A stretch of DNA of 64,000 nt from assembly GCA_035259205.1 (NCBI GenBank), contig DATFWO010000036.1, positions 11,018 through 75,017 on the forward strand, read 5' to 3'. Below the pieces are notes generated by a model. The model worked only from the letters and a program-made list of their open reading frames with translations. It was not told where the DNA came from and did not search any database. Numbering within the stretch: the stretch's first letter is position 1; the number at the start of each line of letters is the position of its first letter. The position numbers and the translations under genes were made by a program. This DNA is from Burkholderiales bacterium. GTDB lineage: Bacteria; Pseudomonadota; Gammaproteobacteria; Burkholderiales; SG8-41. Positions 16,537-43,898 of this stretch are shown piece by piece.

Positions 16537-16929
16537 ATGCTCAATCACGATCTGCAACGAGACGAGGGAATACTGGTGTTACGACCCGAAGGCCCGCTCG
16601 AGGCGACCGATTTCGATACGCTGGCCGCGCACGTCGACGCTTACCTCGAGCAGAACGGAACGCTGCACGGCGTGCTGATCGAGGCGAAGGCGTTTCCGGG
16701 CTGGAAGAACTTTGCCGCGCTGCTCGCCCATCTGAAGTTCGTCAAGCGCCATCATCGGAAGATCGAGAAGGTCGCGGTCGTCGCAGACGACGGTTTTGCG
16801 ACCGTCATGCCGCAGATTGCCAGCCATTTCATACACGCGGAACTGCGGCACTTCGATCATGGACACGAAAGCGCCGCATGGGAGTGGCTGAAGGAAAGCA
16901 CCCGCCGGAAAACCCGCACTGCGGCATAG
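16537..16929 (+). CDS. STAS/SpoIIAA-like (DUF3478-type) domain protein
   Basis: 130 aa; ...EGILVLRPEGPLEATDFDTLAAHVDAYL...HGVLIEAKAFPGW...KIEKVAVVAD pattern. Confidence 0.6.
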   Translation: MLNHDLQRDEGILVLRPEGPLEATDFDTLAAHVDAYLEQNGTLHGVLIEAKAFPGWKNFAALLAHLKFVKRHHRKIEKVAVVADDGFATVMPQIASHFIHAELRHFDHGHESAAWEWLKESTRRKTRTAA

Positions 16930-16942
16930 TCGGCCTCGGGCC

Positions 16943-17005
16943 AGAGACTGGAGACTCGGGACCTGGTCCCCAATCCTTGGTCTCAGTCGCCGGTCCCTGG
17001 TCTCT
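16943..17005. repeat. heptamer array, family C (GAGACTN/GGGACCN), 9 units, self-complementary
   Basis: AGAGACT GGAGACT CGGGACC TGGTCCC CAATCCT TGGTCTC AGTCGCC GGTCCCT GGTCTCT. The left and right halves are reverse complements. Fills the gap between convergent genes. Confidence 0.85.
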
Positions 17006-17013
17006 CGTGCTGG

Positions 17014-29903: not shown

Positions 29904-29945
29904 CGTTGCTGTCGCTGGTCGTCGAAGACCATGTTGAGCGCTTAC

Positions 29946-30386
29946 CTACTTGCTATGTGCAGGCACTCTAAAAACAGCAGAACCGCTTCCGTCTGGAGTC
30001 CGCGCGATGATCTCGTATCGACGGCCAACCTCCAGCGTTGCGGCAGGCACCTTTACGGCAAACCCCGGTGGTGATTCCCCATAGGGGATTTTTATTACGC
30101 TGACAGTCTTACCGCTTGCTGTGATTTGCCAAACGACTCGCGCACGCTGTCCTTCCTCGCGTGCTTCCGCATTGCGTTGCCCTTCTTCGAAGTGCTCTAG
30201 GACGAAAAGCTCAGAAATCGCCGTACCACCACTAGAAACAGTTGACTGCGAGCCAAGAACAAATAGCGGAACATTGCGACTCGTCAAGTCCACCGAAACG
30301 TCAAATGTCTCTTCGCACCCCGCTAGAATAAACAGGGCACCAAGACCGACGACCGCAACGAATTGCCTGGAAAGACCGAGAGTCAT
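29946..30386 (-). CDS. hypothetical lipoprotein
   Basis: Lipobox ...ALFILAGC. Sits in a visibly lower-GC islet (about 29.9-30.7 kb). No family recognised. Confidence 0.55.
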   Translation of the reverse strand: MTLGLSRQFVAVVGLGALFILAGCEETFDVSVDLTSRNVPLFVLGSQSTVSSGGTAISELFVLEHFEEGQRNAEAREEGQRARVVWQITASGKTVSVIKIPYGESPPGFAVKVPAATLEVGRRYEIIARTPDGSGSAVFRVPAHSK

Positions 30387-30671
30387 TCTTATTTGCCCGG
30401 GGAACCTTGTTGACCAGCCCCGCCACCGCGGCCGGTATATTTGCAGATGTCATTTGTGCACTGTATTGCCCAGACCGTAAGGATCCAAGATCGACTCAAA
30501 CTCTCTTCTCTCGCCAGCACCGGATGTTCCAGTTGCGCCCTTGGTGAAGTAATTTTGAACAATGAACGAAAAAAGGTCAGACTCGATTGAAAACCTGAAG
30601 GGTCAGACTCGAATGCCCTGGCAAGAACAAATAGGGTTGGTGTACTGAACCTCTTTTCAGTCAACAAGGAA

Positions 30672-30703
30672 TTTCATCCGCGTTCATCTGCGTTTATCTG
30701 CGG
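30672..30703 (-). repeat. decamer array, family G (CGCAGATRAA on minus strand), 3 units
   Basis: TTCATCCGCG TTCATCTGCG TTTATCTGCG, trailing the ArsR stop. About 29/33 nt identical to 49217..49249 in opposite orientation. Confidence 0.8.
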
Positions 30704-30712
30704 CCAATCCTG

Positions 30713-31411
30713 CTATTGTTGGCTACAAAAAAGCTTGCCGAAAGCCTCATTTCCCCTGGGCGTGATGGTGACCGCACGCGAGCGCCGCGTGCGCAGGATC
30801 CAGCCGCGAGCAACGTAAAGGTCGAGCAGTGCGGCGCCCAGGGCCCCGCCAAGGTGCGGGCGCCGCTGGGTCAGGTCGACGCACGCACGCGCCAACACGC
30901 GCCGCGTCCCGCGCGCCGCCGCGAGATCGACATCGAGCGCGGCGAGCTTTTTCTCGCCGAGCCGGGTCACGCAGTAGTCCCGTCTCTCGGCTATAAGCCA
31001 GCGCGCCTTCAGCATCCCCTCGCATATCTGCACCGCCGCCTCGCCCGCCAGATGATCGTAGCAGGTCCGCGCGCGCAGAAACTGGATGGACACCGACTTC
31101 GAAGGCAGCGGACCGCGCGGCGCCCGGGGCAGGATCGCCACGCTGAGCGAGGCGAGGCTTTCGATCGCATCCGCCACCTGGGCGCTCGCGATCCGGAAAT
31201 AGCGATGCCGCCCCTGGGCTTCCGAAGTGAGCAGGCCGCCGTCCACGAGCTTCCCGAGGTGCGCGCTCGCCGACTGCGCTGAGATATTGGCGGTATAGGC
31301 GAGCTCGCCTGCCGGGCGCATCGTGCCGTCGATCAGCGCTCTCAATATCCTGGCGCGCGCCGGATCTGCCAGTAGGTTGGCGATGCGCGGGATGTTCGGC
31401 TCGTCATCCAT
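30713..31411 (-). CDS. ArsR/SmtB-type helix-turn-helix transcriptional regulator
   Basis: LADPARARILRALIDGTMRPAGELAYTANISAQSASAHLGKLVDGGLL wHTH. Divergent from the MFS gene. Confidence 0.8.
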   Translation of the reverse strand: MDDEPNIPRIANLLADPARARILRALIDGTMRPAGELAYTANISAQSASAHLGKLVDGGLLTSEAQGRHRYFRIASAQVADAIESLASLSVAILPRAPRGPLPSKSVSIQFLRARTCYDHLAGEAAVQICEGMLKARWLIAERRDYCVTRLGEKKLAALDVDLAAARGTRRVLARACVDLTQRRPHLGGALGAALLDLYVARGWILRTRRSRAVTITPRGNEAFGKLFCSQQ

Positions 31412-31485
31412 ATTTCACCTTACCATGAAACGTGCAGGTTACACCGTGCGGATAATGGCTGTCCATATCCTTGCACGGGAGTGCG

Positions 31486-32712
31486 ATGCGCCCGTTCGTG
31501 ATGCTCGTCATGATCACCGCGTTGAGCCAGTTCCACCGCGCCTGCCTGGGCGTGGTCGCGCCGGAGCTGACGCGCGACCTCGCCATGTCGCCCGAGCAGC
31601 TGGGAAGAGCCAGCGGCGCTTTCTTTCTCGCGATCGCCCTGGCGCAGGTGCCGGTCGGCATGCTCTTCGACCGGATCGGGCCGCGCCGAACGGTTACCGC
31701 CTTGACCGCTGTCGCAGTTGCCGCCGCGCTGTGGCAGGCCGCCGCGGCGACCGGAAGCCAGCTGATCGCCGCGCGTTTTTTCCTGGGCCTGGGTTGCGCC
31801 GGGAGCATCATGGGCGCGGTCACGTTGTGCGCCCTGTGGTACTCGCGCGAACGCATGAGCACGATGCTGAGCCGGGTGCTCGCGCTCGGTCAGACCGGGA
31901 TCTTCCTCGCCGCCACGCCGCTTGCGTTGGCGAGTACGACCGTCGGGTGGCGCGGCGCATTTGCCGGCATGGCGGTGGTTACCGCGGCGGTGGGCGTGCT
32001 CTTCTATGCCTGGGTCGAGGACCGTCCCGCGCACCCCTCCTCCGCGGCTCAGCCGCCGGAGTCGCTCCGCGCCGTCGTGCAGGGCCTCGCTACGGTGTGG
32101 CGCACGGAAGGACTGTTCCCGGTGCTGGCGATTCACACCTTTGCCTATCCCGGCATGGCGATCGTGCTGGGACTGTGGGCCGGTCCCTACCTGGCCGACG
32201 TGCACGGCCTCGACGGCCCGGCGCGCGGTAACGTGCTCCTGGCGATGGCCGTCGCGCAGGTCACTGGTATTCTTGCGTACGGTCCGCTCGACCGTCTGTT
32301 CGACACTCGTAAATGGGTGATCGTCACAGGCGCCGTCGGAACCATAGCCTCGCTCGCCGCCCTCGCGATGATCCCCGGGCCTCCGCTCGGCGTGGCCGTC
32401 GCCCTGCTCGTGCTGTTCTGCGGCGTGACCGCCTATGCCGTCGTGATCATGTCGCACGGGCGCAGCCTGTTTCCGGATCGCCTGATGGGCCGGGGCATCA
32501 CGACCGTCAACATCGCGCAGGTCGTGGGCCTCACGGTCTTGTCGGCAGTCACCGGCGAGATCGTCGGCGCATTTCCAGCCGAGGGCGTAGCGCGGCCCGA
32601 GGCCGCGTACCGCCACGTCTTCGGCAGCATCGCACTGGCGCTCTCCGTCGGTCTCGCCGTCTATCTGTTCGCGAAAGACGCCAAGCCCAGCCGGTCGGCT
32701 GTTCGGCCTTGA
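31486..32712 (+). CDS. MFS transporter
   Basis: ATG 31486 with GGGAG 5 nt upstream. Multiple TM segments; GMLFDRIGPRR MFS signature. Confidence 0.8.
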   Translation: MRPFVMLVMITALSQFHRACLGVVAPELTRDLAMSPEQLGRASGAFFLAIALAQVPVGMLFDRIGPRRTVTALTAVAVAAALWQAAAATGSQLIAARFFLGLGCAGSIMGAVTLCALWYSRERMSTMLSRVLALGQTGIFLAATPLALASTTVGWRGAFAGMAVVTAAVGVLFYAWVEDRPAHPSSAAQPPESLRAVVQGLATVWRTEGLFPVLAIHTFAYPGMAIVLGLWAGPYLADVHGLDGPARGNVLLAMAVAQVTGILAYGPLDRLFDTRKWVIVTGAVGTIASLAALAMIPGPPLGVAVALLVLFCGVTAYAVVIMSHGRSLFPDRLMGRGITTVNIAQVVGLTVLSAVTGEIVGAFPAEGVARPEAAYRHVFGSIALALSVGLAVYLFAKDAKPSRSAVRP

Positions 32713-32775
32713 CGTTGGCTGTGAGGGAGCTGCCCTGATGTAGGATGAACTTCAAAACTCAATTAGAGATACCCC

Positions 32776-33453
32776 GTGGCTGAAATCAGGGTTATGGCAT
32801 CGGCAGCGTTCAAAGAGGCTTACCTCGAACTTGTTCCGCAGTTCGAGCGCGCCACCGGTCACAAGGTCATGACGATGTGGATACCGACCGTGGAGATGAT
32901 GAGCCGCCTGAAAGGCGGCGAGGCAGTCGACCTGGTCATCCTGCCCGCCGCCATGCTCGACGACCTCATCGGGCTCGGCCGCATCGTCGACCGGGCCGAT
33001 CTCGCCAGATCGGGCATCGGCGTCGCCGTGAAAGCGGGCGCGCCGCGACCGGACATCAGCTCGAGCGAGGCGCTCAAGCGGGCGGTGCTCGCGGCCCGGT
33101 CCATCGTGTACTCAACCGGCCCGAGCGGGATCTACCTCGTCGGGCTGTTTCAGCGCATGGGCATCGCCGATGCGATCAAGGGCAAGGTGAAGCAGGTGCA
33201 AGGCGAGCCGGCGGGCGCGTCGGTTGCGCGCGGTGAAGCGGAGCTGGGGTTTCAGCAAGTAAGCGAGCTGCTTCCCGTACCTGGAATAGACCTGATCGGC
33301 CCGCTGCCGCCAGAAGTACAGGAGATCACCGTCGTTTCCGCCGGGCTCCATGCGGACGCAAAAGAACCTGACGCGGCGAAGGCCCTGGTCAAGTTCTTCA
33401 GGGAGCCGGCCGCCGCTCCCGTCATCAGGAAGAAAGGACTGGAGCCGGCCTGA
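32776..33453 (+). CDS. ModA-like (PBP2) substrate-binding domain protein without signal peptide
   Basis: IRVMASAAFKEAYLELVPQFERATGHKV...DLVILPAAMLDDL... type-II binding-protein pattern. GTG start; ATG 32794 is an alternative. Confidence 0.6.
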   Translation: MAEIRVMASAAFKEAYLELVPQFERATGHKVMTMWIPTVEMMSRLKGGEAVDLVILPAAMLDDLIGLGRIVDRADLARSGIGVAVKAGAPRPDISSSEALKRAVLAARSIVYSTGPSGIYLVGLFQRMGIADAIKGKVKQVQGEPAGASVARGEAELGFQQVSELLPVPGIDLIGPLPPEVQEITVVSAGLHADAKEPDAAKALVKFFREPAAAPVIRKKGLEPA

Positions 33454-33457
33454 CTTA

Positions 33458-33502
33458 TGAGGGATGAGGGATGAGGGATGAGGGATGAGGGATGAGGGAT
33501 GA
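33458..33502 (+). repeat. heptamer array, family A (TGAGGGA), 6.4 perfect units
   Basis: TGAGGGA x6 then TGA, starting 4 nt after stop 33451..33453. Confidence 0.95.
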
Positions 33503-33510
33503 ACGGACAA

Positions 33511-33538
33511 CCCCTCACCCCTCAATCATTACTCATTA
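33511..33538 (-). repeat. heptamer array complementary to 33458..33502, overlapping the stop of the UGSC gene
   Basis: CCCCTCA CCCCTCA ATCATTA CTCATTA (plus strand). CCCCTCACCCCTCA pairs with TGAGGGATGAGGG at 12 of 13 positions. Confidence 0.8.
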
Positions 33539-34072
33539 CGCTTTCTGCCCTTCCAGCAACAGCTTCACCACCTCGGGCACGATCGCCTTCGCGCGCTGAT
33601 CGAGCTCCGCATCGCTCAGGTTCGCGATCGGATGAGGCATCTCGAGGAAACGAAACTCGGGAAGACCCCAGGTCTTGGCCATGGCGCGGCCCGTCGGCCG
33701 GAACGGCTGCGTGATGATGGACGCCGAGGGAATCCCGTGCTGTTCGAAAACGATACTGTCGAGCACACTGCCCGACGAGCACGACCCTCAGTCGCCTACC
33801 CCCGCGACGACGACGTCGCAGCTGGCTTTGTACTCGTCGATGATCTCGGTGTGCGGCGCGACGCCCGAGCTGTGCTTCTTGCGGATGATGTGCGCCTTCG
33901 CGCCGTGCTCTTTCTCGAGTATCGAGGCGATGCGCAGCAGCAGCTGGTCCGAGTTGTGCTTGGTGTTGTCCACCAGCCCGAGCCGCAGGCCGGAGAGCGA
34001 CTTCGGCCGCGGCGCGTACTTGATGGTGCGCGGCGTGGCCTCCGTCGTAGGATCGAAGATCTGTATAGGCAT
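33536..34072 (-). CDS. candidate UGSC-type selenoprotein (in-frame TGA 33788..33790 read as Sec), 178 codons
   Basis: ORFs 33788..34072 and 33536..33766 are one frame separated only by this TGA: ...DVVVAGVGD-U-GSCSSGSVLDS... The second half has no ATG or SD of its own. It aligns along its full length with 13106..~13640. Confidence 0.75.
33758..33776 (-). promoter_or_regulatory. SECIS-like hairpin 11 nt downstream of TGA 33790..33788
   Basis: Minus strand GTCGGGCA-GTG-TGCTCGAC: 8-bp stem (one G-U), loop starting GU, 11-nt spacer. Compensatory changes relative to 13405..13423. Confidence 0.6.
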
Positions 34073-34093
34073 GTTGCGCTCCTTTCTGGTTGC

Positions 34094-34132
34094 TTCATCA
34101 CTTCTTCACTGCTTCACCCTTTGCCGCTTCAC
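34094..34132 (-). repeat. octamer array, family E (GTGAAGNN on minus strand)
   Basis: TCAC at 34098/34106/34114/34129. Minus strand ...GGTGAAGCAGTGAAGAAGTGATGAAG. Fills the spacer between the partner-gene stop (34137) and the UGSC start (34072). Confidence 0.8.
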
Positions 34133-34136
34133 TTTT

Positions 34137-35171
34137 TCAATGATTCTTGATTTCCTTGGTGACGCTTTGCGACCCCTTCTTGCTGCCCCAGCCGGGTATG
34201 AACGCGGACTGCGAGCCGGCATTGCCGCCCGCCGCGATCACCAGCAGATCTTCCGGGCGCTCGACGATAGGAGACATCTCACGCTCGTCTCCGGGCTTCA
34301 CGTCCCCCTTCATCATGTTGAAGCGCTTGAACTCCGCCATGCTGGACCGGGCGTTCTCGAATACGTATTTCTGGACCTGCTCGCGGCTCCACCCGGCCTT
34401 CTTGAAGGTCACCTGGTGCTCGCCGCCGAAGACCATCGCGTACTGCGGCTGGCGCGTCGCGCCGGCGGAGATCTTCATGTGCGCGCACGCCGTGGTCAGT
34501 ATGCCTTCGGGAGACGCGCTCAGGCCGTTGTTGTACTGGTGCGGCGCCAGCGCCGCGAAAATCGTGACCGCGTTCTGGTCGCGGCGGAAGCCGCGGGTCG
34601 TATGAAAAGGCGGCCACGGGCTGTCGACTTCGTTCTCGGCGATGCAGTACGTGTATTTCCCGCCGTGGCCGAGGTTGCTGCGGTCGAGCTCGCCCGGCAG
34701 CGTGCCGATCGCGTTGCGCATGGTGAGCCGCACCGCGCGCCCGATCGTCGCGTTCGCGCGCCATCCGGGAGAGAACAGGTTGTGCCCGCTGTTGATGTCG
34801 AGCTCGCGCGCGATCGGCCCGTTTACCAGCATGAATACGGCCGAGCCGCCCGTGCTGGTCGCCGGGCCGTGGTAGCCGTAGAGCGGATCTCCCAGTGCCT
34901 CGACCGCCGCCATGACGATCGGCATGTACTCGGCCTTGCACCCGGCCATCACCGCGTTGATCGCCACTTTCTCCGCGGTCACCGAGAGCTGGCGGTTCTC
35001 GATGAAAGCGACCTGGAGCTGAGGCTCCACCCCAGCCGCCGCCAGCATGCCGACGACGCGCTCCTCGGTCGCGGGCACGACGGGAAAACCGTCGGTCCAG
35101 CCGTTCGTGTAGCAGAGTTCCATTGCGCCGGCCAGGTCGGCCGCGGTATGGCGTCGCGACGTAAGTTCCAT
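34137..35171 (-). CDS. UGSC-associated protein of unknown function (paralogue of residues ~190-535 of 13106..14713)
   Basis: Start at ATG 35171 (MELTSRRHT...) with GGGAG 8 nt upstream. Motifs shared with locus 1: GW(T/G)DG(F/L)PVVP(A/P)T, INAVMAGC, NATIGRA/NATLGRA, GKYT(Y/F)C, IAAGG/VAGG. Confidence 0.7.
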   Translation of the reverse strand: MELTSRRHTAADLAGAMELCYTNGWTDGFPVVPATEERVVGMLAAAGVEPQLQVAFIENRQLSVTAEKVAINAVMAGCKAEYMPIVMAAVEALGDPLYGYHGPATSTGGSAVFMLVNGPIARELDINSGHNLFSPGWRANATIGRAVRLTMRNAIGTLPGELDRSNLGHGGKYTYCIAENEVDSPWPPFHTTRGFRRDQNAVTIFAALAPHQYNNGLSASPEGILTTACAHMKISAGATRQPQYAMVFGGEHQVTFKKAGWSREQVQKYVFENARSSMAEFKRFNMMKGDVKPGDEREMSPIVERPEDLLVIAAGGNAGSQSAFIPGWGSKKGSQSVTKEIKNH

Positions 35172-35400
35172 GCTTTGCTCCCGTGGGTAAGTGTTGCGTG
35201 CTGCCGCAGGAATGAGGTTACTCCCCAAGTCCAACCTGTGTCGAGAATCGTCCGCCGTCCGCATTGCGGAAATTCGGTGCTGCGCCGCAGGGCCCCGACA
35301 CGCGTCGGTGGACTCCAGTCGCGCGGCTGGAAGAAAATGCGGCTTCCGCCGGCAACTCGACGCCCGTAGAGATCGAGCACCCCCCGAGGATGGAGGACGG

Positions 35401-36366
35401 ATGCGTATGTGGCATGCGATAGTTGCGGCCGTCGCTCTGGCCGGTCTGGCCGCTCCCCTTTGCGCGCAGAATCAACCGGGTCGCTCGATCCGGCTGGTCG
35501 TCCCGCAAGCGCCCGGGGGCACCAACGACACCCTGGGCCGCATCGTCGCCGACAGGCTCGCGGAGCGCCTCGGCCAGCAGGTCGTGGTCGATAACCGCGC
35601 CGGGGGAAACAGCCAGATCGGCTCTACCATCGTCGCGCGGGCCGTGCCCGACGGACGCACCTTGCTCATTACGGGTGCAGGGCACGCCATCAATCCGGCT
35701 CTCCAGAGCTCGTTGCCGTACGAAACCGAGCGCGATTTCGCTCCCGTGGGTCTCGTCGGCGGCGGTCCCTACTGGCTGGTCGTGCATCCCTCCGTCCCCG
35801 CAAAGACGGCGAGGGAGTTCGTGGCCTGGGTGAGGTCGCGGCCCGGCCAGGTGAATTGCGCTTCGGCGGGCGTCGGCAATCCCACGCATCTCGCGGCCGA
35901 GCTCTTCAACATGGCCACCGGCACCGACATGCGGCACATTCCGTACAAAGGCGGTGCCGCGGTACTGCCCGACCTGATCGGCGGCCGCGTATCGGCGTTT
36001 TTCTCGTCGATCACCACCGCCCAGGCGCACGTTCAGGCGGGAAGGCTCAAGTCCATCGCGGTGACCACTGCCAGGCGCTCGCCGTTCATTCCCGATGTTC
36101 CGACCCTCGGCGAGTCCGGCATCACCGGCGCCGAGGTGGACGGCTGGTACGGAATCCTGACGACGGGCAATACCCCGCGCGCGACGGTGACCCGCCTCAG
36201 CACCGGGCTGCGGCAGGTGCTGTCCGATTCGGCCACGCGCGAGGCGATAGAGAGACAGGGAATTACCCCTGCGCTTAACACCGCCGAAGAGTTCGCGGCG
36301 CTCATCCACAACGACATCGCCAAGTGGAAAAAGGTCGTGAGCGCGGCGGGCATCAAGCCCGAGTGA
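35401..36366 (+). CDS. Bug/TctC family substrate-binding protein
   Basis: Start at ATG 35401 (MRMWHAIVAAVALAGLAAPLCAQ). IRLVVPQAPGGTND, VVDNRAGG, HIPYKGGA. Confidence 0.9.
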   Translation: MRMWHAIVAAVALAGLAAPLCAQNQPGRSIRLVVPQAPGGTNDTLGRIVADRLAERLGQQVVVDNRAGGNSQIGSTIVARAVPDGRTLLITGAGHAINPALQSSLPYETERDFAPVGLVGGGPYWLVVHPSVPAKTAREFVAWVRSRPGQVNCASAGVGNPTHLAAELFNMATGTDMRHIPYKGGAAVLPDLIGGRVSAFFSSITTAQAHVQAGRLKSIAVTTARRSPFIPDVPTLGESGITGAEVDGWYGILTTGNTPRATVTRLSTGLRQVLSDSATREAIERQGITPALNTAEEFAALIHNDIAKWKKVVSAAGIKPE

Positions 36367-36398
36367 CTTCCATCAGTCACGTTTTATCAGTCACGTGT
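36361..36398 (+). repeat. GAGTGAC unit plus 14-nt direct repeat (ATCAGTCACGT x2)
   Basis: ATCAGTCACGT at 36372..36382 and 36386..36396. The array begins inside stop codon 36364..36366. Confidence 0.75.
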
Positions 36399-36416
36399 TA
36401 GCACAGGAGACGATCG

Positions 36417-37040
36417 ATGAGCACAGGCAAGGAAGCACGTTTCGTGGTCGCGCCGGAGCGCATGCCGGAAATCCCGGCTGCAAAGATGACCGAAGCGCAG
36501 AAGCAGGCAGTCGCCGAAATCAGCGCCGGCCCGCGCGGCGAGGTGAAAGGACCGTTCGTCGCGTTTCTGCGCAGCCCGGAGCTGATGCGCCGCGTGCAGA
36601 AGGTCGGCGAGTACCTCCGCTTCATGTGCCCGATCGACAAGCGCCTGGGCGAGTTCGCGGCGATCATAGGGGCCCGCGCGTGGTCGCAGCAGTTCGAGTG
36701 GTGGGCGCACTACCGGCAGGCGGTAGCGGCGGGCTTGAAGCGCGAGATCGCCGACGCCGTGGCCGAAGGCCGGCGTCCGGCAGGCATGGCAGAAGATGAA
36801 GAGATCCTCTACGACTTTCTGACCGAGCTCATCAATACCAAGGGCGTGAGCGACACGACGTACGCGCGCGCGGTCGCCAAGTTCGGCGAGCAGGGTGTGA
36901 TCGACCTCACCAGCGTCGTCGGTTATTACACATTGCTCGCGATGGTGATGAACGTCGCGCGCACGGCGGTGCCGGAAGGCCCGTCTCTTCCGCTGCCGGC
37001 ACTGCCACTCAGGGCGACTCCCCTGGTGACTAGAGACTAG
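36417..37040 (+). CDS. carboxymuconolactone decarboxylase (AhpD-like) family protein
   Basis: ...GPFVAFLRSPELMRRVQKVGEYLRF...EFAAIIGARAWSQQFEWWAHYRQA... pattern. The last codons run into a heptamer array. Confidence 0.7.
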   Translation: MSTGKEARFVVAPERMPEIPAAKMTEAQKQAVAEISAGPRGEVKGPFVAFLRSPELMRRVQKVGEYLRFMCPIDKRLGEFAAIIGARAWSQQFEWWAHYRQAVAAGLKREIADAVAEGRRPAGMAEDEEILYDFLTELINTKGVSDTTYARAVAKFGEQGVIDLTSVVGYYTLLAMVMNVARTAVPEGPSLPLPALPLRATPLVTRD

Positions 37041-37069
37041 GGACTTGAGACTAGGGATAAGGGCTGGAG
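37028..37069 (+). repeat. heptamer array, family C, 6 units (left arm flanking the four-helix-bundle gene)
   Basis: GACTAGA GACTAGG GACTTGA GACTAGG GATAAGG GCTGGAG. Overlaps stop 37038..37040. Confidence 0.9.
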
Positions 37070-37117
37070 ATTGACCTGCTTGTACACCTTAATGTCCCTA
37101 GCATCGTTAATGCCTGC

Positions 37118-37489
37118 ATGGGGAATTGGACACATCGAGACCTTGTGGCGTGGCGCGAAGCAATGAAGCTCGCTGAAATGGTGTATCGGGACACCGAGAG
37201 TTTTCCAAAGATGGAACGCCATGGCCTTGCGGCGCAGCTGAGACGTGCCGCGGTGTCAATCCCATCGAACATTGCCGAGGGTTCGGGAAGGAACTCGTCC
37301 AGAGAACTCTTTCAGTTTCTCGGCTTTACCTGCGGTTCTCTTGCAGAGCTCGAGACTCAACTTGAGCTTGCAACAAGGCTGGGATACCTCGAGGCAAGCA
37401 ATCAAGTTGCGAATCAAGCAAACTTCGTTGGAAAGCTCGTCAATGGCTTGCGCAAGTCAATTAAGAAGCGAAGCAACCCCGGTCTCTAG
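37118..37489 (+). CDS. four-helix-bundle protein (23S rRNA-IVS protein / Avd-like family)
   Basis: 123 aa; ...LVAWREAMKLAEMVYRDTESFPKMERHGLAAQLRRAAVSIPSNIAEGSGRNSSRELFQFL..GSLAELETQLELA is the family signature as I recall it. Confidence 0.85.
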   Translation: MGNWTHRDLVAWREAMKLAEMVYRDTESFPKMERHGLAAQLRRAAVSIPSNIAEGSGRNSSRELFQFLGFTCGSLAELETQLELATRLGYLEASNQVANQANFVGKLVNGLRKSIKKRSNPGL

Positions 37490-37508
37490 TCCCTAGTCTC
37501 CAGTCTCT
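37481..37508 (-). repeat. heptamer array, family C inverted, 4 units (right arm flanking the four-helix-bundle gene)
   Basis: GGTCTCT AGTCCCT AGTCTCC AGTCTCT. Its reverse complement matches 37033..37052 at 18 of 21 positions (13 contiguous). Overlaps stop 37487..37489. Confidence 0.9.
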
Positions 37509-37516
37509 CATTCGCG

Positions 37517-38476
37517 TCAGTCGACGCGAATCCCGGCCGCCGCGGCGACTTTCTTCCAGCGCGCGAGCTCGGATTTGAGATACGCGGTGAATGCTTCAGG
37601 AGTGCTGCCGACGACCTCCGAGGCGTGCAGCTCGAATTTCTGCCTGACGTCCGGCAGGTGGACGATACGCACCGTTTCTTCGTACAGCCTGCGCACGATC
37701 TCCCGCGGCGTCCCCGCCGGCACGAGCACGCCTATCCATCCGGCGAATTCGTACCCGGGAATCCCGGATTCGGCGATGGTCGGCGTATCGGGCAGCGCCG
37801 GCGAGCGCTTCATCGTCGTCACCGCGAGGAGCCTCAGCTTGCCGTCCTTCACCAGCGGGAGCATGGATTCGGGCGTGCCGTACACATACTGGAGGCGGCC
37901 GCCGAGCAGATCGGGCATCGCCTGGGGAAGTCCCTTGTACTGCACGTGGACCACGCGTATGCCGGCCGTGAGGCGGAACAGCTCCCCCGCCAGATGGCTA
38001 GCCGAGCCGTTGCCCCCGGTGCCGTAATTCAACTGGCCGGGACGCGCCTTCGCGAGCGCCACCAGCTCCTGCACCGACTTCGCCGGTACCGAGGGATTGC
38101 TCGTCAGCACCAGCGCCTGCGAGACGACCTGGGTTACCGGGACGAAATCGCGCAAGGTTGCGACCGACAGCTTCTGGTACACGGCCTCGCGCAGCACCAG
38201 CGAGGAAGTCGTCACCATGACCGTATAGCCGTCCGGGATGGCCCGGGCCGCGATTTCCGCGCCTATCATCCCGGTGCGGTTGTCCACGACGACCTGCTGG
38301 CCCCACGAATCGGTGAGCTTCTGTCCGATGGCCCGCGCAACGGTATCGCCCCCGCCGCCGGGCACGGTCGGAACGATGATGCGTATCGGCCGGCCGGGAT
38401 ACTGCTGAGCGGGACACCAGCCCGGCGTCGCGGCAAGCACAAAAACGATCCCGTACGCAGCCCGTCTCGTATTCAT
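37517..38476 (-). CDS. Bug/TctC family substrate-binding protein
   Basis: YPGRPIRIIVPTVPGGGGD, VVDNRTG, PDGYTVMV, HVQYKGLP. An 8-bp hairpin TTCGCGTC/GACGCGAA (37511..37530) spans the stop. Confidence 0.9.
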   Translation of the reverse strand: MNTRRAAYGIVFVLAATPGWCPAQQYPGRPIRIIVPTVPGGGGDTVARAIGQKLTDSWGQQVVVDNRTGMIGAEIAARAIPDGYTVMVTTSSLVLREAVYQKLSVATLRDFVPVTQVVSQALVLTSNPSVPAKSVQELVALAKARPGQLNYGTGGNGSASHLAGELFRLTAGIRVVHVQYKGLPQAMPDLLGGRLQYVYGTPESMLPLVKDGKLRLLAVTTMKRSPALPDTPTIAESGIPGYEFAGWIGVLVPAGTPREIVRRLYEETVRIVHLPDVRQKFELHASEVVGSTPEAFTAYLKSELARWKKVAAAAGIRVD

Positions 38477-38575
38477 CTCACTCGGCGCGCTGATGTCGGG
38501 AGAGCAAGAAAAGCCTCAACGCTGTTCGCCTTCCTTCGCGGATTCGCATCCTTCGTGTAAAGCTTTGGCGTTAAC

Positions 38576-38602
38576 AAAAAAGGCCGCGCATCATGCGCGG
38601 CC
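38576..38602 (-). terminator. rho-independent terminator of Bug gene 38619
   Basis: Minus strand GGCCGCGCA-TGA-TGCGCGGCC followed by TTTTTTGTT. It lies just beyond the heptamer array that overlaps the stop codon. Confidence 0.7.
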
Positions 38603-38603
38603 C

Positions 38604-38624
38604 GTCACCCGTCACTCGTCACTC
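38604..38624 (-). repeat. heptamer array, family B, 3 units overlapping the stop codon
   Basis: GTCACCC GTCACTC GTCACTC (plus strand), which reads GAGTGAC GAGTGAC GGGTGAC on the gene strand. Stop 38619..38621 lies inside a unit. Confidence 0.85.
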
Positions 38625-39587
38625 GACCTTGATACCCGAATCGGCCACGACCTTCCTGAACTTCGCGATCTCGCTCTTGATGACGGCTGCGAACTGCTCC
38701 GGCGTGTTGCCGATGGTAACGAAGCCGAGCGAGCTGAAGCGCCCCTTGACGTCGGGAGCCTCGAGCGCGGCGACCGCCTCGCGGTTCACGGCACGCACCA
38801 CTTTGTCCGGCGTGCCGCGGGGCGCGAACAGGCCGTGCCAGATCTGGAAGTCATAGCCCTGCATGCCCTGTTCGGCGATGGTCGGCACGTTGGGGAGCAC
38901 CGGCGAGCGCTGCGCGCTGGTGATACCGTAGGCCTTGAGCTTACCCGCGTCGATGTGCTGCTTGCTGGCGAGCGGCGTAAGGACCGATACGTCCACCTCT
39001 CCCGACAGGATCGCGATCTCCGTGGGCGAGCTTCCCTTGTAGCGCACGTTGTTCATCTTGAGCTGCGTCTGCGCCCACAGCGCATCGCCTGCAAGCTCGC
39101 CGGTTGCTCCTGCCACCCCGACGTTGAACTTGCCGGGCTGCCTCTTCGCGGCGTTGACGAAGTCCGTGAGCGAATTCCCGGGCACTTTGGGATTCGCCAC
39201 GACGACCATGCCGCTCGTCACCAGTTGCGTGATCGGAACGAAGTCGCGCACGGGATCGTACGGCAGGTTGCGGTAGAGGCTCGGATTGATCGCGTGCGTG
39301 CCGCTGTTGCCCACGGCCAGCGTGTAGCCGTCCGGGGCTGCCTTGGCCGCGATGTCCGTTCCCGCGACCCCGTTCGAGCTGCCCCGATTGTCCGCTACCA
39401 TGGCCTGCTTGAGCCCTTCGGTAAGCCGCGGCAGGATCAGCCGCACCGCCGTATCGGACGGACCGCCCGGCGGGACCGGAACGATGATGCGGATCGGCCG
39501 ATTTCCGCTCAAACCTTGAGCGGAAATGTATGAAGGAAACAATGCAGCACAAAGCAGGGCTGCGACGATTTTCAACAGCGCTCTCAT
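38619..39587 (-). CDS. Bug/TctC family substrate-binding protein
   Basis: Start trimmed to ATG 39587 (MRALLKIVAALL...); the upstream MRDDPFGR is just the translation of a heptamer array. IRIIVPVPPGGPSD, PDGYTLAV, VRYKGSS. Confidence 0.9.
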   Translation of the reverse strand: MRALLKIVAALLCAALFPSYISAQGLSGNRPIRIIVPVPPGGPSDTAVRLILPRLTEGLKQAMVADNRGSSNGVAGTDIAAKAAPDGYTLAVGNSGTHAINPSLYRNLPYDPVRDFVPITQLVTSGMVVVANPKVPGNSLTDFVNAAKRQPGKFNVGVAGATGELAGDALWAQTQLKMNNVRYKGSSPTEIAILSGEVDVSVLTPLASKQHIDAGKLKAYGITSAQRSPVLPNVPTIAEQGMQGYDFQIWHGLFAPRGTPDKVVRAVNREAVAALEAPDVKGRFSSLGFVTIGNTPEQFAAVIKSEIAKFRKVVADSGIKVE

Positions 39588-39600
39588 CCGTCCGAACGGG

Positions 39601-39631
39601 TCATCCCTCATCCTTCATCCCTCATCCTTCC
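39601..39631 (-). repeat. heptamer array, family A, 4.4 units
   Basis: TCATCCC TCATCCT TCATCCC TCATCCT TCC, between the ABC stop (39641) and the Bug start (39587). Confidence 0.9.
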
Positions 39632-39640
39632 AGATTGCGG

Positions 39641-41428
39641 CTATGCGGCAAACTGCAGCCTGGCGAGATGGGCGTAAAGCCCGTCCGCGTTGAGCAACTC
39701 CTGGTGGTTGCCGACGGCATGGATGCGTCCGCGATCCAGGACGATGATGCGGTCGGCGTTGCGCACGGTCGCCAGGCGGTGCGCGATCACGATCGTCGTG
39801 CGCCCGCGCGCGAGCCGCTCCAGGGCCTGGGCAATCTGGCGCTCTCTCTCCGCGTCGAGCGAGCTCGTCGCCTCGTCGAGCAACAGGACGGGGCGGTCCG
39901 CGAGCAGCGCCCGCGCGATCGAGATGCGCTGGCGCTGTCCGCCGGAGAGCTTGACGCCACGCTCGCCGAGATCGGTATCGAACCCATGCGGCAGGCGCTC
40001 GATGAATTCCAGGGCGTGCGCCGCCGCGCACGCGTCCCGCACCATGCTGTCCGAGGCATCCGGGCGGCCGAACCGCACGTTCTCCGTGATACTCCCGGCA
40101 AAGATCACGGGATCCTGCGGCACCAGCGCGATCGCACGGCGCAGGTCGTGCGGATCGCAATGCCGGAGGTCCGCGCCGTCCAGCAGGACTCTGCCGTGCG
40201 ACGGATCATAGAACCGCAGGATCAGCGCGAAGATCGTCGACTTGCCCGCTCCCGACGGGCCGACCAGCGCGATCCGCTCTCCGGGATCTATCGTGAAAGA
40301 GACGGGCCCGAGCGCGGTCACCTCCGGGCGCGCGGGATAGGCGAAGACGACCTCGTCGAACCGGATTGCCCCGGTCACGCGCGACGGCAGCCGTATCGGC
40401 GGCGCGGCGACCTCGAGCTCGGGTCGAATGTCGAGCAGCTCCATCAGGCGCTCGGTCGAGCCCGCCGCGCGCTGGATCTCGCCCCACACTTCCGAAACCG
40501 TGCCGGCCCCGCTCGCCACCACGGCGGCGTAGAACACGAAAGCCGAGAGCTGCCCGGCTGTGAGCCGACCCGCGAACACGTCGTGGCCGCCTATCCACAG
40601 GATCACGCCGACCGCGCAGAATCCGATCAGCATCACGGAGGAAATGAGCCACGCTTTCACGCGCACGCGATGCACACCCGCGGCACGCGCCGCATCGACC
40701 GCCGCGGAAAACTGCGCCCGGGTGCGCGTTTCGTGGCCATAAGCCTGGACGGTCCGGATTTCGTGCAGCGACTCGTCGACGAGCGACGACACGTCGGCCA
40801 CGCGGTCCTGGCTGACGCGCGAGAGGCGTCGCACGCGCCGCCCCATCACGAGGATCGGCACGACCGTCGCCGGTATGCCGAGCACGATGAGCGCGGCGAG
40901 CTTGGAGCTGGTCATGAACAGCAGCACCAGCGCGCCCAGCATCATCAGCGAATTGCGCAGGAACATCGAGAAACCGAACCCGATCACCTGCCGGATCTGC
41001 TCGGTGTCATTGGTGAGACGCGAGGCGACCTCGCCGGTGCGAGCGGAATCGAAGAACGCGGGCGACAGCGTGAGGACGTGGCCGAAGACCGCCGAGCGCA
41101 AATCCGCGACGATCCGCTCACCGACGCTCATCATCAGGTAGAAGCGCACCCAGGTCGCGCCCGCCAGCACGACGGACACCGCGACCACGGCCGCGAGTGC
41201 GGCGTTCAGGAGGCGGGGATCACCGCCGCCCAGTCCGGCATCCACCACGTGCCGCAGCCCTTGTCCCAGCGCGAGCACGCAGCCGGCCGCAACCATGAGT
41301 GCGGCGAGCGCGACGCCTATCCGACCGCGATAGGGCAGCAGGAAGCGGCCGAGGCGCGCAAGGTGGTGGATGTCGCCCTTTGCTGGCGACGCGAACGAGG
41401 AACCCATGGCCATGGCCCATCCTAACAT
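39641..41428 (-). CDS. ABC transporter, fused permease/ATP-binding protein (MsbA-like exporter type)
   Basis: Six-TM N-domain followed by Walker A GPSGAGKST, signature LSGGQRQRISIARA and Walker B LLLDEATSSLD. First ATG taken as 41428. Confidence 0.85.
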   Translation of the reverse strand: MLGWAMAMGSSFASPAKGDIHHLARLGRFLLPYRGRIGVALAALMVAAGCVLALGQGLRHVVDAGLGGGDPRLLNAALAAVVAVSVVLAGATWVRFYLMMSVGERIVADLRSAVFGHVLTLSPAFFDSARTGEVASRLTNDTEQIRQVIGFGFSMFLRNSLMMLGALVLLFMTSSKLAALIVLGIPATVVPILVMGRRVRRLSRVSQDRVADVSSLVDESLHEIRTVQAYGHETRTRAQFSAAVDAARAAGVHRVRVKAWLISSVMLIGFCAVGVILWIGGHDVFAGRLTAGQLSAFVFYAAVVASGAGTVSEVWGEIQRAAGSTERLMELLDIRPELEVAAPPIRLPSRVTGAIRFDEVVFAYPARPEVTALGPVSFTIDPGERIALVGPSGAGKSTIFALILRFYDPSHGRVLLDGADLRHCDPHDLRRAIALVPQDPVIFAGSITENVRFGRPDASDSMVRDACAAAHALEFIERLPHGFDTDLGERGVKLSGGQRQRISIARALLADRPVLLLDEATSSLDAERERQIAQALERLARGRTTIVIAHRLATVRNADRIIVLDRGRIHAVGNHQELLNADGLYAHLARLQFAA

Positions 41429-41532
41429 CAAAAAAACCTTTGCCTCCGCCAGCTTTTATTCCTGACAAATCAGTGCGATGACAGATCCACTCCGGCGTTC
41501 AGCCGTTCGCCCGTCACCCGCTGGCACGCAGA

Positions 41533-41561
41533 TTGATATTCGTCGGGTCCGGGCGTAGCAT
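41533..41561 (+). promoter_or_regulatory. candidate sigma70-type promoter for small ORF 41630
   Basis: TTGATA (41533..41538), 17-nt spacer, TAGCAT (41556..41561), about 70 nt upstream of the ATG. Confidence 0.4.
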
Positions 41562-41629
41562 GAATCTGCAACTCCAAGTACGGCAGCAAGGGAAACTGTC
41601 TACCTTCTGGACATGGAAAGGAGGTTGTA

Positions 41630-41785
41630 ATGTGCTACGAGTATGACTGGATGCAAAAACCACAAGCAGACGAGGCAACGCGCAGAATCAAGGAAAAGGC
41701 CGACGAACTGACAAAGCAGAACAACCCAGCGCCGCCCAAACCGGCGGAGTCGCCACGCACCAAGGAACAACCCGTTCCGGCCTGA
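41630..41785 (+). CDS. small hypothetical protein (51 aa), absent from the ORF track
   Basis: GGAAAGGAGG ends 6 nt before ATG 41630. MCYEYDWMQKPQADEATRRIKEKADELTKQNNPAPPKPAESPRTKEQPVPA. A terminator follows immediately. Confidence 0.5.
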   Translation: MCYEYDWMQKPQADEATRRIKEKADELTKQNNPAPPKPAESPRTKEQPVPA

Positions 41786-41787
41786 TC

Positions 41788-41816
41788 AAAAAAACCCCGC
41801 AGAAGCGGGGTTTTTG
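41788..41816. terminator. bidirectional rho-independent terminator
   Basis: AAAAAAA-CCCCGC-AGAA-GCGGGG-TTTTTG, between the small ORF (+) and Bug gene 41906 (-). Confidence 0.7.
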
Positions 41817-41876
41817 TTGACCTGCACGGTTCAGCTGCCGAATAACTTGAGCTCCGTTTTCAGATAACCGAGGTGC

Positions 41877-41911
41877 ATCACTCGTCACCCGTCACTCGTC
41901 ACCCGTCACTC
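41877..41911 (-). repeat. heptamer array, family B, 5 units overlapping the stop codon
   Basis: ATCACTC GTCACCC GTCACTC GTCACCC GTCACTC. Stop 41906..41908 lies inside the last unit. Confidence 0.9.
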
Positions 41912-42868
41912 GACCTTGATTCCCGACTGCTTGATCGCACGGCCCCATTTTTCGCGCTCGCTCTTGAGGTGAACCGCCAGCTCCCGCGGCGTGCTGCCGA
42001 TCGCGTCGGTGCCGTCGGTCGCGAGGCGCGATGCGATGTCAGGTTGATTCAGCGTCCTCACGATCTCGCGGTATAGCCGCTCGACGACAGCCTGCTGCAC
42101 GCCGCGCGGTGCCAGCATGGCATGCCACTGCGTTACTACGAAACCGGGGATGCCCGCTTCGATCATCGTCGGGATCTCGGGCGCGGACTTGGCTCGCACC
42201 GCGCTCGTCACGGCCAGGGCGCGCAGCCGCTGCGCTCGCATCAAGGGAAATCCGGATGCGAGTATGACCAGCGTCATTTGCACGCGGCCGGCCAGCATCT
42301 CCGGGTACGCGGCCCCCATGCCCTTGAACGGCACGTGGACCATGTCCGTGCCGGTCATCGTCCGCAGCAGCTCGGTCGCAAGGTGTATCAGCGAGCCGTT
42401 GCCGGTCGAAGCATAGTTGAGCTTGCCGGGATTGGCTTTTGTATAGGCGATCAGCTCGGCCACCGATTTCACCGGCAGCGCAGGGTTGACGAGCAGCACG
42501 TAGGGTCCCGCGGCGACCTGCGAAACCGGCGTAAGGTCGCGGAGAATGTCGTACGGCACCTTGACCAGCATGGAGTGCACCAGCGAAGTCGCGCTCATGA
42601 AAACCAGGGTGTAGCCGTCCGGCGCGGCATTCACCGTGAGCTCCACGGCGATCGAACCGCTGGCCCCCGGCCGGTTGTCCACGACGACGCTCTGGCCGAG
42701 GTACTCGCCGAGCCTGGGAGCGATCAACCGCGCGACGAAGTCGAGGCCACCTCCCGTCCCCGAAGCGACGAGTACCCTGATCGGCCGCGCCGGATAGTCT
42801 TGAGCCGGTAAGCCTGGACTCAAGACCGTCAACAGGAACGCCAACGAAAAGAGCGAGGCGCGCTTCAT
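41906..42868 (-). CDS. Bug/TctC family substrate-binding protein
   Basis: Start at ATG 42868 (MKRASLFSLAFLL...). [44 protein letters not shown]. Confidence 0.9.
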   Translation of the reverse strand: MKRASLFSLAFLLTVLSPGLPAQDYPARPIRVLVASGTGGGLDFVARLIAPRLGEYLGQSVVVDNRPGASGSIAVELTVNAAPDGYTLVFMSATSLVHSMLVKVPYDILRDLTPVSQVAAGPYVLLVNPALPVKSVAELIAYTKANPGKLNYASTGNGSLIHLATELLRTMTGTDMVHVPFKGMGAAYPEMLAGRVQMTLVILASGFPLMRAQRLRALAVTSAVRAKSAPEIPTMIEAGIPGFVVTQWHAMLAPRGVQQAVVERLYREIVRTLNQPDIASRLATDGTDAIGSTPRELAVHLKSEREKWGRAIKQSGIKVE

Positions 42869-42996
42869 CGATTCATTGGTCCTGCGATCGTGTTTCCGGC
42901 ACTCCTGAATTGTCGCCTGCCTGAATGCGGTGGACAACACCGCAACCATGGCCCTGCTCCGTGGTAGATTCGGCAGGCCCGATCGAGAGGGGTTCC

Positions 42997-43735
42997 ATGG
43001 ACCAAGCGCTCTGGGTTACGTGGTACGACCTTCCCGACTCCGATCGGGCGGCCTACCTCGCATGGGTTCACGGCGCATACATCCCGAAAGTCGTGGAACG
43101 ACCAGGTGTGCTGTGGGGCGCCCACTACGCATCCGAAGAGAACGTCGTGCCGTTGGGTGGCGGCAAGGGCCGCGTCAGCCATGTCAAACCCGATTCGATC
43201 CCGGGCGGGGACCGCTATATTTTGATCTTTGGCGCGGAGAACGCCGACGCCTTCGCCAGTCCGAGCCCGCGCCGGTTTCACGCGCAGCTGCCGGAAGGAG
43301 ATCAGGCGATGCTTGCGTTGAGAACCGGCGAGCGCGTCAACGTCATGCTCGAGGAAACACGCGTATACGGACCCGAGGCGAGACTGCCCGAATCCGACGG
43401 CGCGCCCGCCCCGTGCATACAGCTCGGCAGCTTCAATTCCGGCTCGTACGAAGACGAGGATGAGCTCGCTGCCTGGTACGCGCAATGGCGGCTGCCGTCA
43501 CTCAGAACCTTGCCAAGGGGTGGTGCGGGTCCGGAAGCTGGTTTCGATTTCCGGCTGGGCCAAGCACGCGTGTTGTTACGAATTTACCTCGGTGGAAGCC
43601 CGCAACGAGCACTTCATCTACTACGAGCGCGGCCACCCGGAGATGGAGGCCTGGTCGAAGCGGGCCGTGAAGAACCTCATCCACGCCCCCGGCTCGCCCA
43701 ATCTCGCGCGGCGCATCTGGCTTGCCGTTAAATAG
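42997..43735 (+). pseudogene. frameshifted hypothetical protein (two similar half-domains)
   Basis: Frame 1 (MDQALWVTWYDLPDSDRAAYLAWVHG...AAWYAQWRLPSLRTLP) continues sensibly only in frame 2 (GVVRVRKLVSISGWAKHACCYEF...RIWLAVK). There appears to be one extra base in CCAAGGGG at about 43515..43520. Confidence 0.55.
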
Positions 43736-43812
43736 CGTCTCAGATAGTGCGTCCCAGCTGATGCGTTTCAGATAAAGCGTCCCGATAGTGCGTCCCATAC
43801 ACGGCGTCCGCC
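43736..43812 (+). repeat. 13-14-nt periodic array, family H (GCGTCYCA...), 6 units
   Basis: GCGTC(T/C)C or GCGTTTC at 43736, 43749, 43763, 43777, 43790 and 43804. Starts directly after stop 43733..43735. Confidence 0.8.
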
Positions 43813-43850
43813 TCCAGAACCGCTGCAAGCACGCCCCATCCGGGACGTTG

Positions 43851-43895: not shown

Positions 43896-43898
43896 GGC

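Follow-up and report, generated by a model that had tools for sequence, protein, structure and literature searches.

Genes of the S23p four-helix-bundle (4HB) family are among the most common bacterial genes of unknown function. To our knowledge, no origin has been accepted since 1993 for the 23S rRNA intervening sequences (IVSs) that carry S23p genes, and we know of no explanation for the excess of heptamer repeats in bacterial intergenic DNA. Both matters meet at one locus in a 64,000-nucleotide stretch of contig DATFWO010000036.1 from a Burkholderiales bacterium (GCA_035259205.1; hereafter the window), where a gene of this family lies outside rRNA between two tandem heptamer arrays of opposite orientation. 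Do this gene and its arrays belong together, and if so, what kind of element do they form? The first part can be answered plainly, because a comparison of 82 loci from more than 10 phyla (numbered L003 onward) shows that PF05635 genes in many phyla share the layout as a family-wide trait, with inverted arrays enclosing about half or more of the family members. For the second part, the explanation favored here, which is given an even chance of being correct, is an IVS-type cassette residing outside rRNA, probably transcribed by read-through and carrying an RNA stem that is probably a processing site.

The gene and its inverted arrays

The open reading frame (ORF) between the arrays (Table 1) is a clear member of the family described by PF05635 (23S_rRNA_IVP) and TIGR02436. 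The former model matches residues 7–109 over profile positions 1–105 of 106 with 108 bits (cutoff 33.8), the latter gives 110.3 bits (cutoff 24), and the crystallized Xanthomonas protein Xcc0516 (PDB 2GSC) matches residues 5–118 with an E value of 2.4e-30. The family assignment made in a first-pass annotation, which had been read from the nucleotide letters alone, is thereby borne out. The protein core reads ...RRAAVSIPSNIAEG..., corresponding to the RxxxSxxxNxxE motif conserved in the family (PMC3936711). There are 7970 homologs at E<=1e-5, and the best of these, approximately 69–75% identical, come from Burkholderiales or Betaproteobacteria metagenome-assembled genomes. The GC content of the gene is approximately 52%, and that of the surrounding region is approximately 67%.

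The first-pass annotation also named a kinship with Avd, the accessory protein of diversity-generating retroelements (DGRs), whose bacterial form (bAvd) has a distantly related four-helix-bundle fold and a similar size. This kinship holds only as a weak resemblance at the level of the superfamily, as the matches to PF22296 (18.1 bits, cutoff 40) and NF033474 (18.8 bits, cutoff 80) fall far below the cutoffs of the Avd models. That the ORF is the Avd gene of a DGR was therefore considered and rejected as extremely improbable: the 4HB models score approximately 110 bits, no reverse transcriptase is present among the ten neighboring genes, and no template repeat/variable repeat pair lies within 10 kb on either side, the direct repeats within positions 27000–47000 being paralog and array matches only. 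The absence of a reverse transcriptase from these neighbors had been correctly noted before, as had the absence of rRNA, and no Rfam family, rRNA, or tRNA was detected anywhere in the 64-kb window.

The arrays that bracket the gene consist of GACTAGR-type heptamers (family C in the first-pass annotation), and their inverted arrangement was confirmed in several ways. A repeat search pairs positions 37028–37056 with 37477–37505 as 29-nt arms that are complementary at 25 of 29 positions (86%) and are separated by 420 nt, and a second register between the arms pairs 19 nt at 89% complementarity. Tandem Repeats Finder reports period-7 arrays at 37028–37054 and 37482–37508. When the flanks are scored for inverted matches, the cassette reaches 18, whereas 100 equally spaced control pairs from the window average 7.5 and reach 10 at most. 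The minimum free energy (MFE) structure predicted for an RNA spanning 37015–37520 (-195 kcal/mol, z -3.67) closes the whole ORF in a loop held by the arms, and the loop of approximately 430 nt proposed earlier is thus reproduced. A stop codon lies in each arm, as had been claimed: the TAG at 37038–37040 ends the upstream gene inside the left arm, and the TAG at 37487–37489 ends the 4HB gene inside the right arm.

The cassette is placed between convergent genes, a weak carboxymuconolactone-decarboxylase (CMD)-like gene on its left and a TctC receptor gene on its right, and the 4HB gene is oriented with the former. An inverted-repeat stem, an ORF in its loop, and co-orientation with the upstream gene together give the topology of rRNA IVS stems; the first-pass annotation had drawn this comparison for the stem and loop. 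Signals for independent expression are scarce. A consensus promoter scan called no sigma-70-like promoter at the cassette and the leader contains no Shine-Dalgarno sequence, both as previously described, although the leader does hold two short motifs, of which TCGTTAAT ends 6 nt ahead of the 4HB ATG. No intrinsic terminator was found on the plus strand of the cassette, the single minus-strand match is at chance level (1 vs 0.8 in shuffles), and no T-run follows either arm.

Recurrence across bacterial phyla

The refutation proposed in the first-pass annotation was that other 4HB genes of this genome would lack enclosing inverted arrays. Applied to the 82 loci from many phyla, this test speaks for the annotation. 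A scan with one genome per species yielded 80 loci whose 4HB genes are 42–57% identical to that of the window, drawn from Betaproteobacteria, Planctomycetota, Acidobacteriota, Bacteroidota, Clostridia, Nitrospirota, Omnitrophota, Desulfobacterota, and other taxa. At most loci, reverse-complementary arrays of period 7 (sometimes 8) occur in the 120 nt on either side of the gene. The array units are specific to lineages, and examples include GGTTAGT, GGATTCA, CAGTGGG, GTGAAAC, GTGATGA, and GTTTTCG.

Specificity was assessed by a flank control within these loci. Of 77 4HB genes, 44% reach an inverted-flank score of 15 or more, compared with only 1.9% of 698 control ORFs, which comprise all other non-overlapping ORFs of 100 aa or longer. 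This result excludes chance or generic intergenic arrays as the sole explanation. Some of the high-scoring controls are themselves 4HB paralogs (L050 4363–4719, L058 7135–7569, L063 4115–4492, and L071 1192–1560), and another is a PD-(D/E)XK_3 gene. A looser search over 160 nt finds arms scoring at least 12 in 61 of approximately 80 scorable loci, with lengths mostly of 20–47 nt. Furthermore, an unbiased search for inverted array pairs shows that those with loops of 350–900 nt nearly all contain a 4HB gene. The same arrangement is found on plasmids of cyanobacteria, where (GGGTGTA)n ... (CTACACC)n enclose an annotated "S23 ribosomal protein" in Calothrix brevissima and (GGGAGTA)n ... (TCCCTAC)n enclose a "four helix bundle protein" in Nostoc edaphicum. 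One such plasmid locus lies at AP018208.1 70848–71225.

One betaproteobacterial contig in this collection (L004; GCA_016192825.1) is extremely rich in arrays. Between positions 1850 and 18100, GTGACTC/GAGTCAC arrays occupy almost every spacer, with 18 in 19 kb and in both orientations, and flanking arrays alone are therefore uninformative there.

No universal heptamer underlies the arrays; this candidate was discarded, as only a GTGA core shows partial enrichment. Among 61 upstream arms (L003–L084 and related loci), GTGA occurs in 22 compared with 12.5 expected, and CGTGA in 8 compared with 1.0 expected. Heptamers with an (A/C)GTGA core recur across phyla, and their reverse complements are almost absent from the upstream arms.

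This over-represented core is one of the clues that the arrays could be binding sites for the 4HB protein itself, serving autoregulation or a nucleoprotein assembly with approximately one heptamer per subunit, in which case the other heptamer arrays of the genome would be further targets. Arrays typically have approximately four to six units, and Avd forms a pentamer and binds nucleic acid. The taxa known for heptamer arrays (cyanobacteria, Xanthomonas, and Bacteroidota) are also rich in 4HB paralogs. Xcc0516 is described as a homopentamer of four-helix bundles (cited in PMC4990558). Even so, binding sites are judged a very unlikely explanation, because the heptamers differ widely among lineages while the protein core motif is conserved, and because the inversion of the two arms is not explained by binding alone.

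Relatives of the upstream gene and the hairpin question

An insertion at the window locus should be visible as presence/absence polymorphism, as the first-pass annotation had suggested. A metagenome scan with the upstream gene recovered 79 relatives with 56–84% identity, besides the identical strain, and in none of the 79 does a 4HB gene follow. The proteins of these relatives end in ...LPLRAxPL*, whereas the window copy continues for four codons (VTRD*) into the array. Thus, the left arm starts exactly at the ancestral stop. The proposal of polymorphism stands to the extent that the gene is lineage-specific, but an exact empty site was not defined, as none of the 79 relatives is sufficiently syntenic downstream. 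Searches for exact matches to the 4HB and TctC proteins of the window had no result.

Some of these relatives carry structures of their own at the corresponding position. An empty pair of inverted repeat arrays directly follows the stop in three (L086, L087, and L106), and a plain hairpin does so in two others (L100 and L101). Such cases raise the possibility that the hairpin came first. Inverted heptamer arrays would be ordinary intergenic punctuation in this lineage, in the form of 3'-end arrays over stop codons and of bidirectional hairpins between convergent genes. The 4HB gene would be a passenger that came to lie in, or specifically targets, an existing hairpin loop, in parallel with the landing of 4HB genes in the loops of rRNA helices. 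The window itself offers two observations in the same direction. Its gene boundaries carry 13 or more tandem heptamer arrays although it has a single 4HB gene, and it contains a compact family-C hairpin with nothing in its loop, located between convergent genes as is the cassette. This hairpin directly follows the stop of the gene 16537..16929(+) and precedes a convergent gene. Family-C arrays therefore do bracket the 4HB gene, as was claimed, but they are not exclusive to it. In addition, 70–75 convergent inverted pairs of GGGAATC arrays have been described in Xanthomonas, and the excerpt of that report used here mentions no enclosed gene (PMC4692102).

Several findings weigh against an origin in which the hairpin precedes the gene, and this alternative is regarded as unlikely, although it is the main one. 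Outside the vicinity of 4HB genes, arrays are rare in most phyla, with a density of 1.7 per kb within 200 nt of the ORF and 0.13 per kb elsewhere. Many cassettes also lie between co-directional genes, where arrays at the 3' ends of host genes cannot give two inverted arms. Furthermore, the arms and the leader are held in common by the closest homologs in differing contexts, and gene loss could equally have left the empty hairpins behind as footprints, as a series of decaying cassettes (L165, L178, and L179, considered below) suggests.

The predicted RNA fold of the empty hairpin in the window differs between strands, at -48.6 kcal/mol (z -4.2) on the plus strand and -34.7 kcal/mol (z -1.5) on the minus strand. 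This asymmetry contrasts with hairpins that bear a 4HB gene, which show none.

Inheritance of the cassette

The homologs closest to the window gene reside in unrelated contexts, yet they share its GACTAGR-type arms, their register, and a conserved leader (L174–L177). The protein of L174 is 75% identical to that of the window. Those of L175 and L176 are 71% identical and their cassettes are directly upstream of an adjoining tRNA-Met gene, whereas that of L177 is 69% identical and lies between CoA-transferase and amidohydrolase genes. An alignment of six cassettes from differing genomic contexts shows that the leader motifs TGTACACC and TCGTTAnT are kept in L174, L175, L177, and L003, and that TCGTTAnT always ends 6 nt before the ATG. 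Arms, leader, and gene are inherited as a unit.

Copy number is polymorphic. Identical 4HB proteins are accompanied by differing numbers of heptamers, as in L165–L173, which differ by one unit. The upstream arm has approximately 20 units in L175 (380–540) and approximately nine in L176 (395–470), again with an identical 4HB protein. The difference between these two loci, approximately 11 GACTAGA/GACTGGA heptamers, is a strong instability of the kind seen in variable-number tandem repeats.

An orthologous spacer, in the order gloB-methyltransferase-rnhA-[cassette]-dnaQ, permits the arms to be followed over a longer period. In L165 the 4HB gene is intact and is enclosed by GTGAACN arms with 27 of 31 positions paired. 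In L181 an intact gene, 58% identical to that of L165, is enclosed by GTGAATG/GTGAGTG heptamers with 29 of 36 positions paired. The left arm of one locus and the right arm of the other pair only at background (score 8). This comparison shows that arm complementarity is retained through evolution even as sequence and copy number drift.

The same spacer also records the loss of the cassette. L178 (1967–2501) retains arms as in L165 around an unannotated 4HB pseudogene with an internal deletion of approximately 117 nt. In L179 (2181–2501) and L180 (176–496), only residues approximately 41–87 are recognizable, and arm pairing is at background (score 7). Together with L165, these loci form a decay series. 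No empty site was found between rnhA and dnaQ, as every relative examined has the gene or a remnant of it.

Orientation, stop codons, and the choice between RNA and DNA

Several properties of the family bear on how the cassette may work. The 4HB gene is co-oriented with its left neighbor in 67 of 77 loci, and where both neighbors are on one strand it is in sense orientation in 48 cases and antisense in three. The median gaps between the 4HB gene and its neighbors are short, at 83 and 55 nt. Upstream arms hold 155 stop triplets compared with 106 +/- 6.7 expected, and stops in all three frames occur in 22 of 61 upstream arms compared with five expected. The stop codon of the 4HB gene often lies inside the downstream arm. 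G-rich 5' arms occur in 49 of 57 loci, a property that is identical when read from either strand.

The size of the predicted stem is also suitable. The arms, mostly 20–47 nt long over 61 loci and with predicted duplex energies of approximately -50 kcal/mol over 59 loci, fit a double strand of the size known for RNase III substrates.

A number of points limit the case for the IVS-type explanation. If selection acted on RNA pairing, G:U-type mismatches might be favored in the sense strand, but the arm mismatches in sense RNA comprise 54 of G:U type and 66 of A:C type, giving no wobble signature. Similarly, duplex energies are -49.9 kcal/mol for the sense and -50.8 kcal/mol for the antisense strand, with 26 loci favoring the former and 33 the latter. 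Both of these tests are neutral and lend no support to RNA-level selection, and no test result separates RNA structure from DNA structure. The orientation counts are based on crude longest-ORF gene calls. Depending on the threshold, a quarter to half of 4HB genes are without detectable arms. Finally, the TCGTTAnT motif of the leader could act as a weak promoter from which a leaderless mRNA is made, or else be an RNA motif, and a promoter of this type would weaken the case for read-through transcription.

A DNA-level mobile element would account for some of the same observations. The arrays would be terminal inverted repeats or single-stranded DNA hairpin ends acted on in trans by a transposase or recombinase, the 4HB gene would be carried as cargo or act as an accessory factor, and empty hairpins would be derivatives resembling MITEs (miniature inverted-repeat transposable elements). 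The absence of the cassette from all relatives of the upstream gene, the presence of like arms and leader in unrelated contexts, and an arm complementarity that is symmetrical and free of a wobble signature all agree with this proposal. In 78 of 82 loci, the GC content of the 4HB gene is also below that of the host DNA, with an average difference of 7.4 points. Indeed, the notion that IVSs are remnants of mobile elements is an old one and is discussed in PMC4990558.

Other features are difficult to reconcile with transposition, which is given an outside chance. Although inverted ends are present in the window, by eye there is no direct repeat outside 37028 or 37508, and hence no visible target-site duplication at boundaries that also lack an exact empty site for comparison. 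No transposase is encoded within the cassette or nearby. Arms that vary by lineage, with copy numbers that vary by strain, would be unusual for recognition ends, and the cassette has been inherited vertically for a long time at the rnhA-dnaQ spacer. Furthermore, 4HB GC content tracks host GC content (r = 0.89), which suggests long residence of these genes rather than recent transfer.

A candidate mechanism and its relation to known systems

The IVS-type explanation can be put together as follows. The cassette consists of the 4HB gene with its short leader and inverted heptamer arms, and it sits where a host gene ends. The host transcription unit would read through into it, and in the resulting RNA the arms would zip into a stem of approximately 20–45 bp that holds the ORF in its loop. 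This stem would be cut, most plausibly by RNase III by analogy with IVSs, or would otherwise act as a processing or insulating structure. Processing of this kind would release the cassette transcript from the host RNA and spare the host gene or operon any harm from the insertion. Two consequences of tandem repetition would be useful to such an element. Because tandem arms can pair in several registers, the stem should tolerate slippage. Because the period is seven, a stop triplet in the repeat unit appears in all three frames, and translation arriving from the host gene would end in the arm, as happens at this locus.

The resemblance to rRNA IVSs is close. In Leptospira, Coxiella, Xanthomonas, and Brucella, a PF05635 gene occupies a loop of approximately 400 nt above a long inverted-repeat stem, as is the case here, and the orientation of the IVS follows the host transcript, as does that of the window gene. 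The 23S IVS of Coxiella is reported to carry a 4HB ORF, to have tandem GACAGAT heptamers whose copy number varies, and to be excised by RNase III (PMC4990558); heptamers by the ORF and the lack of a good ribosome-binding site are both shared with the window cassette. The main differences are that the cassette is outside rRNA, at the 3' end of a protein-coding gene and between convergent genes, and that RNase III excision, which has been shown for IVSs, is proposed for the cassette by analogy. Other settings of 4HB genes are also on record, as they are scattered inside cas operons (PMC3936711) and occur in rRNA insertions of Candidate Phyla Radiation bacteria.

The arrays have known counterparts as well. 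Heptamer arrays have been reported in cyanobacteria, Xanthomonas, Beggiatoaceae, and Bacteroidota (PMC4692102 and PMC4679880), and the cyanobacterial STRR-type, Xanthomonas GGGAATC, Nostoc GGGGAYT, and Beggiatoaceae TAACTGA arrays are intergenic, have a period of seven, and have lineage-specific units and a copy number that varies, as do those described here. In the passages searched, these arrays are treated as stand-alone elements (G-quadruplexes or translational regulation), with no link to a 4HB gene. The cyanobacterial 4HB genes examined in this study are enclosed by G-rich heptamers like those reported for cyanobacterial arrays. MITEs and REP/BIME elements are likewise dispersed as intergenic inverted-repeat hairpins, often at gene 3' ends, and the empty hairpin in the window is similar to them. 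Unlike these elements, the cassette has arms made of tandem heptamer arrays instead of unique terminal repeats, the arms vary by lineage, and neither a target-site duplication nor a cognate transposase was seen.

The gene family itself has been described before; its layout as a cassette outside rRNA, the breadth of its occurrence, and its shared orientation with host genes appear to be new. A link between non-rRNA 4HB genes and inverted heptamer arrays was not found in open-access papers and preprints.

Broader interpretation

If, as these data indicate, most 4HB genes sit in heptamer hairpins on host transcripts, then three separate puzzles, namely the abundant S23p genes, the IVSs, and the intergenic heptamers, would be one phenomenon, and the rRNA IVS would be the same cassette on a different host RNA. 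A more ambitious proposal, which is given a small chance, is that 4HB genes and inverted heptamer arrays constitute one widespread and self-perpetuating hairpin-cassette system. The pentameric 4HB protein might recognize, stabilize, or help generate the heptamers, or it might direct the cassette into loops. The rRNA IVS would then be no more than a special case, with an rRNA helix as the hairpin that was invaded. The intergenic heptamer excess would in large part be a footprint of the system, comprising both live cassettes and empty hairpins left by gene loss.

There are also consequences for genome annotation, in which long arrays can be called as genes and decayed cassettes (L178 and L179) are left unannotated. 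An annotated 122-aa 'gene' in L003 (10433–10801) is in fact an array of CATCACNG octamers approximately 350 nt long. These octamers form the inverted counterpart of the GTGATGAG arrays that surround the 4HB gene.

Other features of the window and a second gene family

The features of the window are collected in Table 1. The ten genes nearest the cassette encode TctC receptors, an ABC transporter, a major facilitator superfamily (MFS) transporter, a solute-binding protein (SBP), a MarR-type helix-turn-helix (HTH) regulator, and proteins without a Pfam match. The small palindrome directly outside the right arm may be the 3' hairpin of the TctC gene itself.

Table 1. Positions of the cassette, its host genes, and other heptamer arrays in the window
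Feature	Position	Strand	Description
4HB gene	37118..37489	+	123 aa; PF05635/TIGR02436; intact; RxxxSxxxNxxE motif present
Left arm	37028..37069	+	Six GACTAGR-type heptamers, degenerating toward the gene (GACTAGA GACTAGG GACTTGA GACTAGG GATAAGG GCTGGAG); pairing core 37028-37056
Right arm	37477..37508	+	Reverse complement of left-arm heptamers (CCCCGGT CTCTAGT CCCTAGT CTCCAGT CTCTC); includes 4HB stop
Leader	37070..37117	+	Two motifs, TGTACACC (37081-37088) and TCGTTAAT (37104-37111)
Small palindrome	37510..37531		ATTCGCG-TCAGTCGA-CGCGAAT; directly outside right arm; overlaps TctC stop
Upstream host gene	36417..37040	+	207 aa; weak CMD-like Pfam match
Downstream host gene, convergent	37517..38476	-	TctC-family solute receptor; PF03401, 202 bits
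Empty family-C inverted heptamer hairpin	16936..17010		Compact, no gene in loop
GGATGAG-type arrays	13025, 33455, 39600, 45804, 52939		
GAGTGAC-type arrays	16405, 38600, 41878, 45745		
ATTTGGG-type array	52872		
Array spans	13021-13056, 16405-16432, 33455-33505, 38600-38627, 39600-39630, 41878-41912, 45745-45838, 52831-52961, 53887-53917, 55838-55895		

Inverted arms are not limited to 4HB genes. Members of the GxxExxY/PDDEXK_3 family, a small family scattered through operons (in L187, for instance, between fabD and fabG), have inverted arms at L004 13176–13547 on the minus strand and at L189 486–860, and a weak pair occurs at L188 480–869. The gene at L185 486–860 has direct repeats of approximately 24 nt as its flanks, and the members in L186 and L187 have no flanking arms. 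The hairpin 'vehicle' may thus carry more than one type of cargo.

Approximately four of the other arrays in the window were checked against the adjacent gene, and these are G-rich on the sense strand of that gene and overlap or adjoin its stop or start codon. Two arrays, at 16405 and 38600, are identical (GAGTGACGAGTGACGGGTGACGGGC) when read in the sense of the genes ending there. Similarly, the 52-nt segments 38588–38639 and 41875–41926, which include the 3' ends of two TctC paralogs and their GAGTGAC-type arrays, are 85% identical, as a result either of duplication of the array along with the gene end or of homogenization of the two copies.

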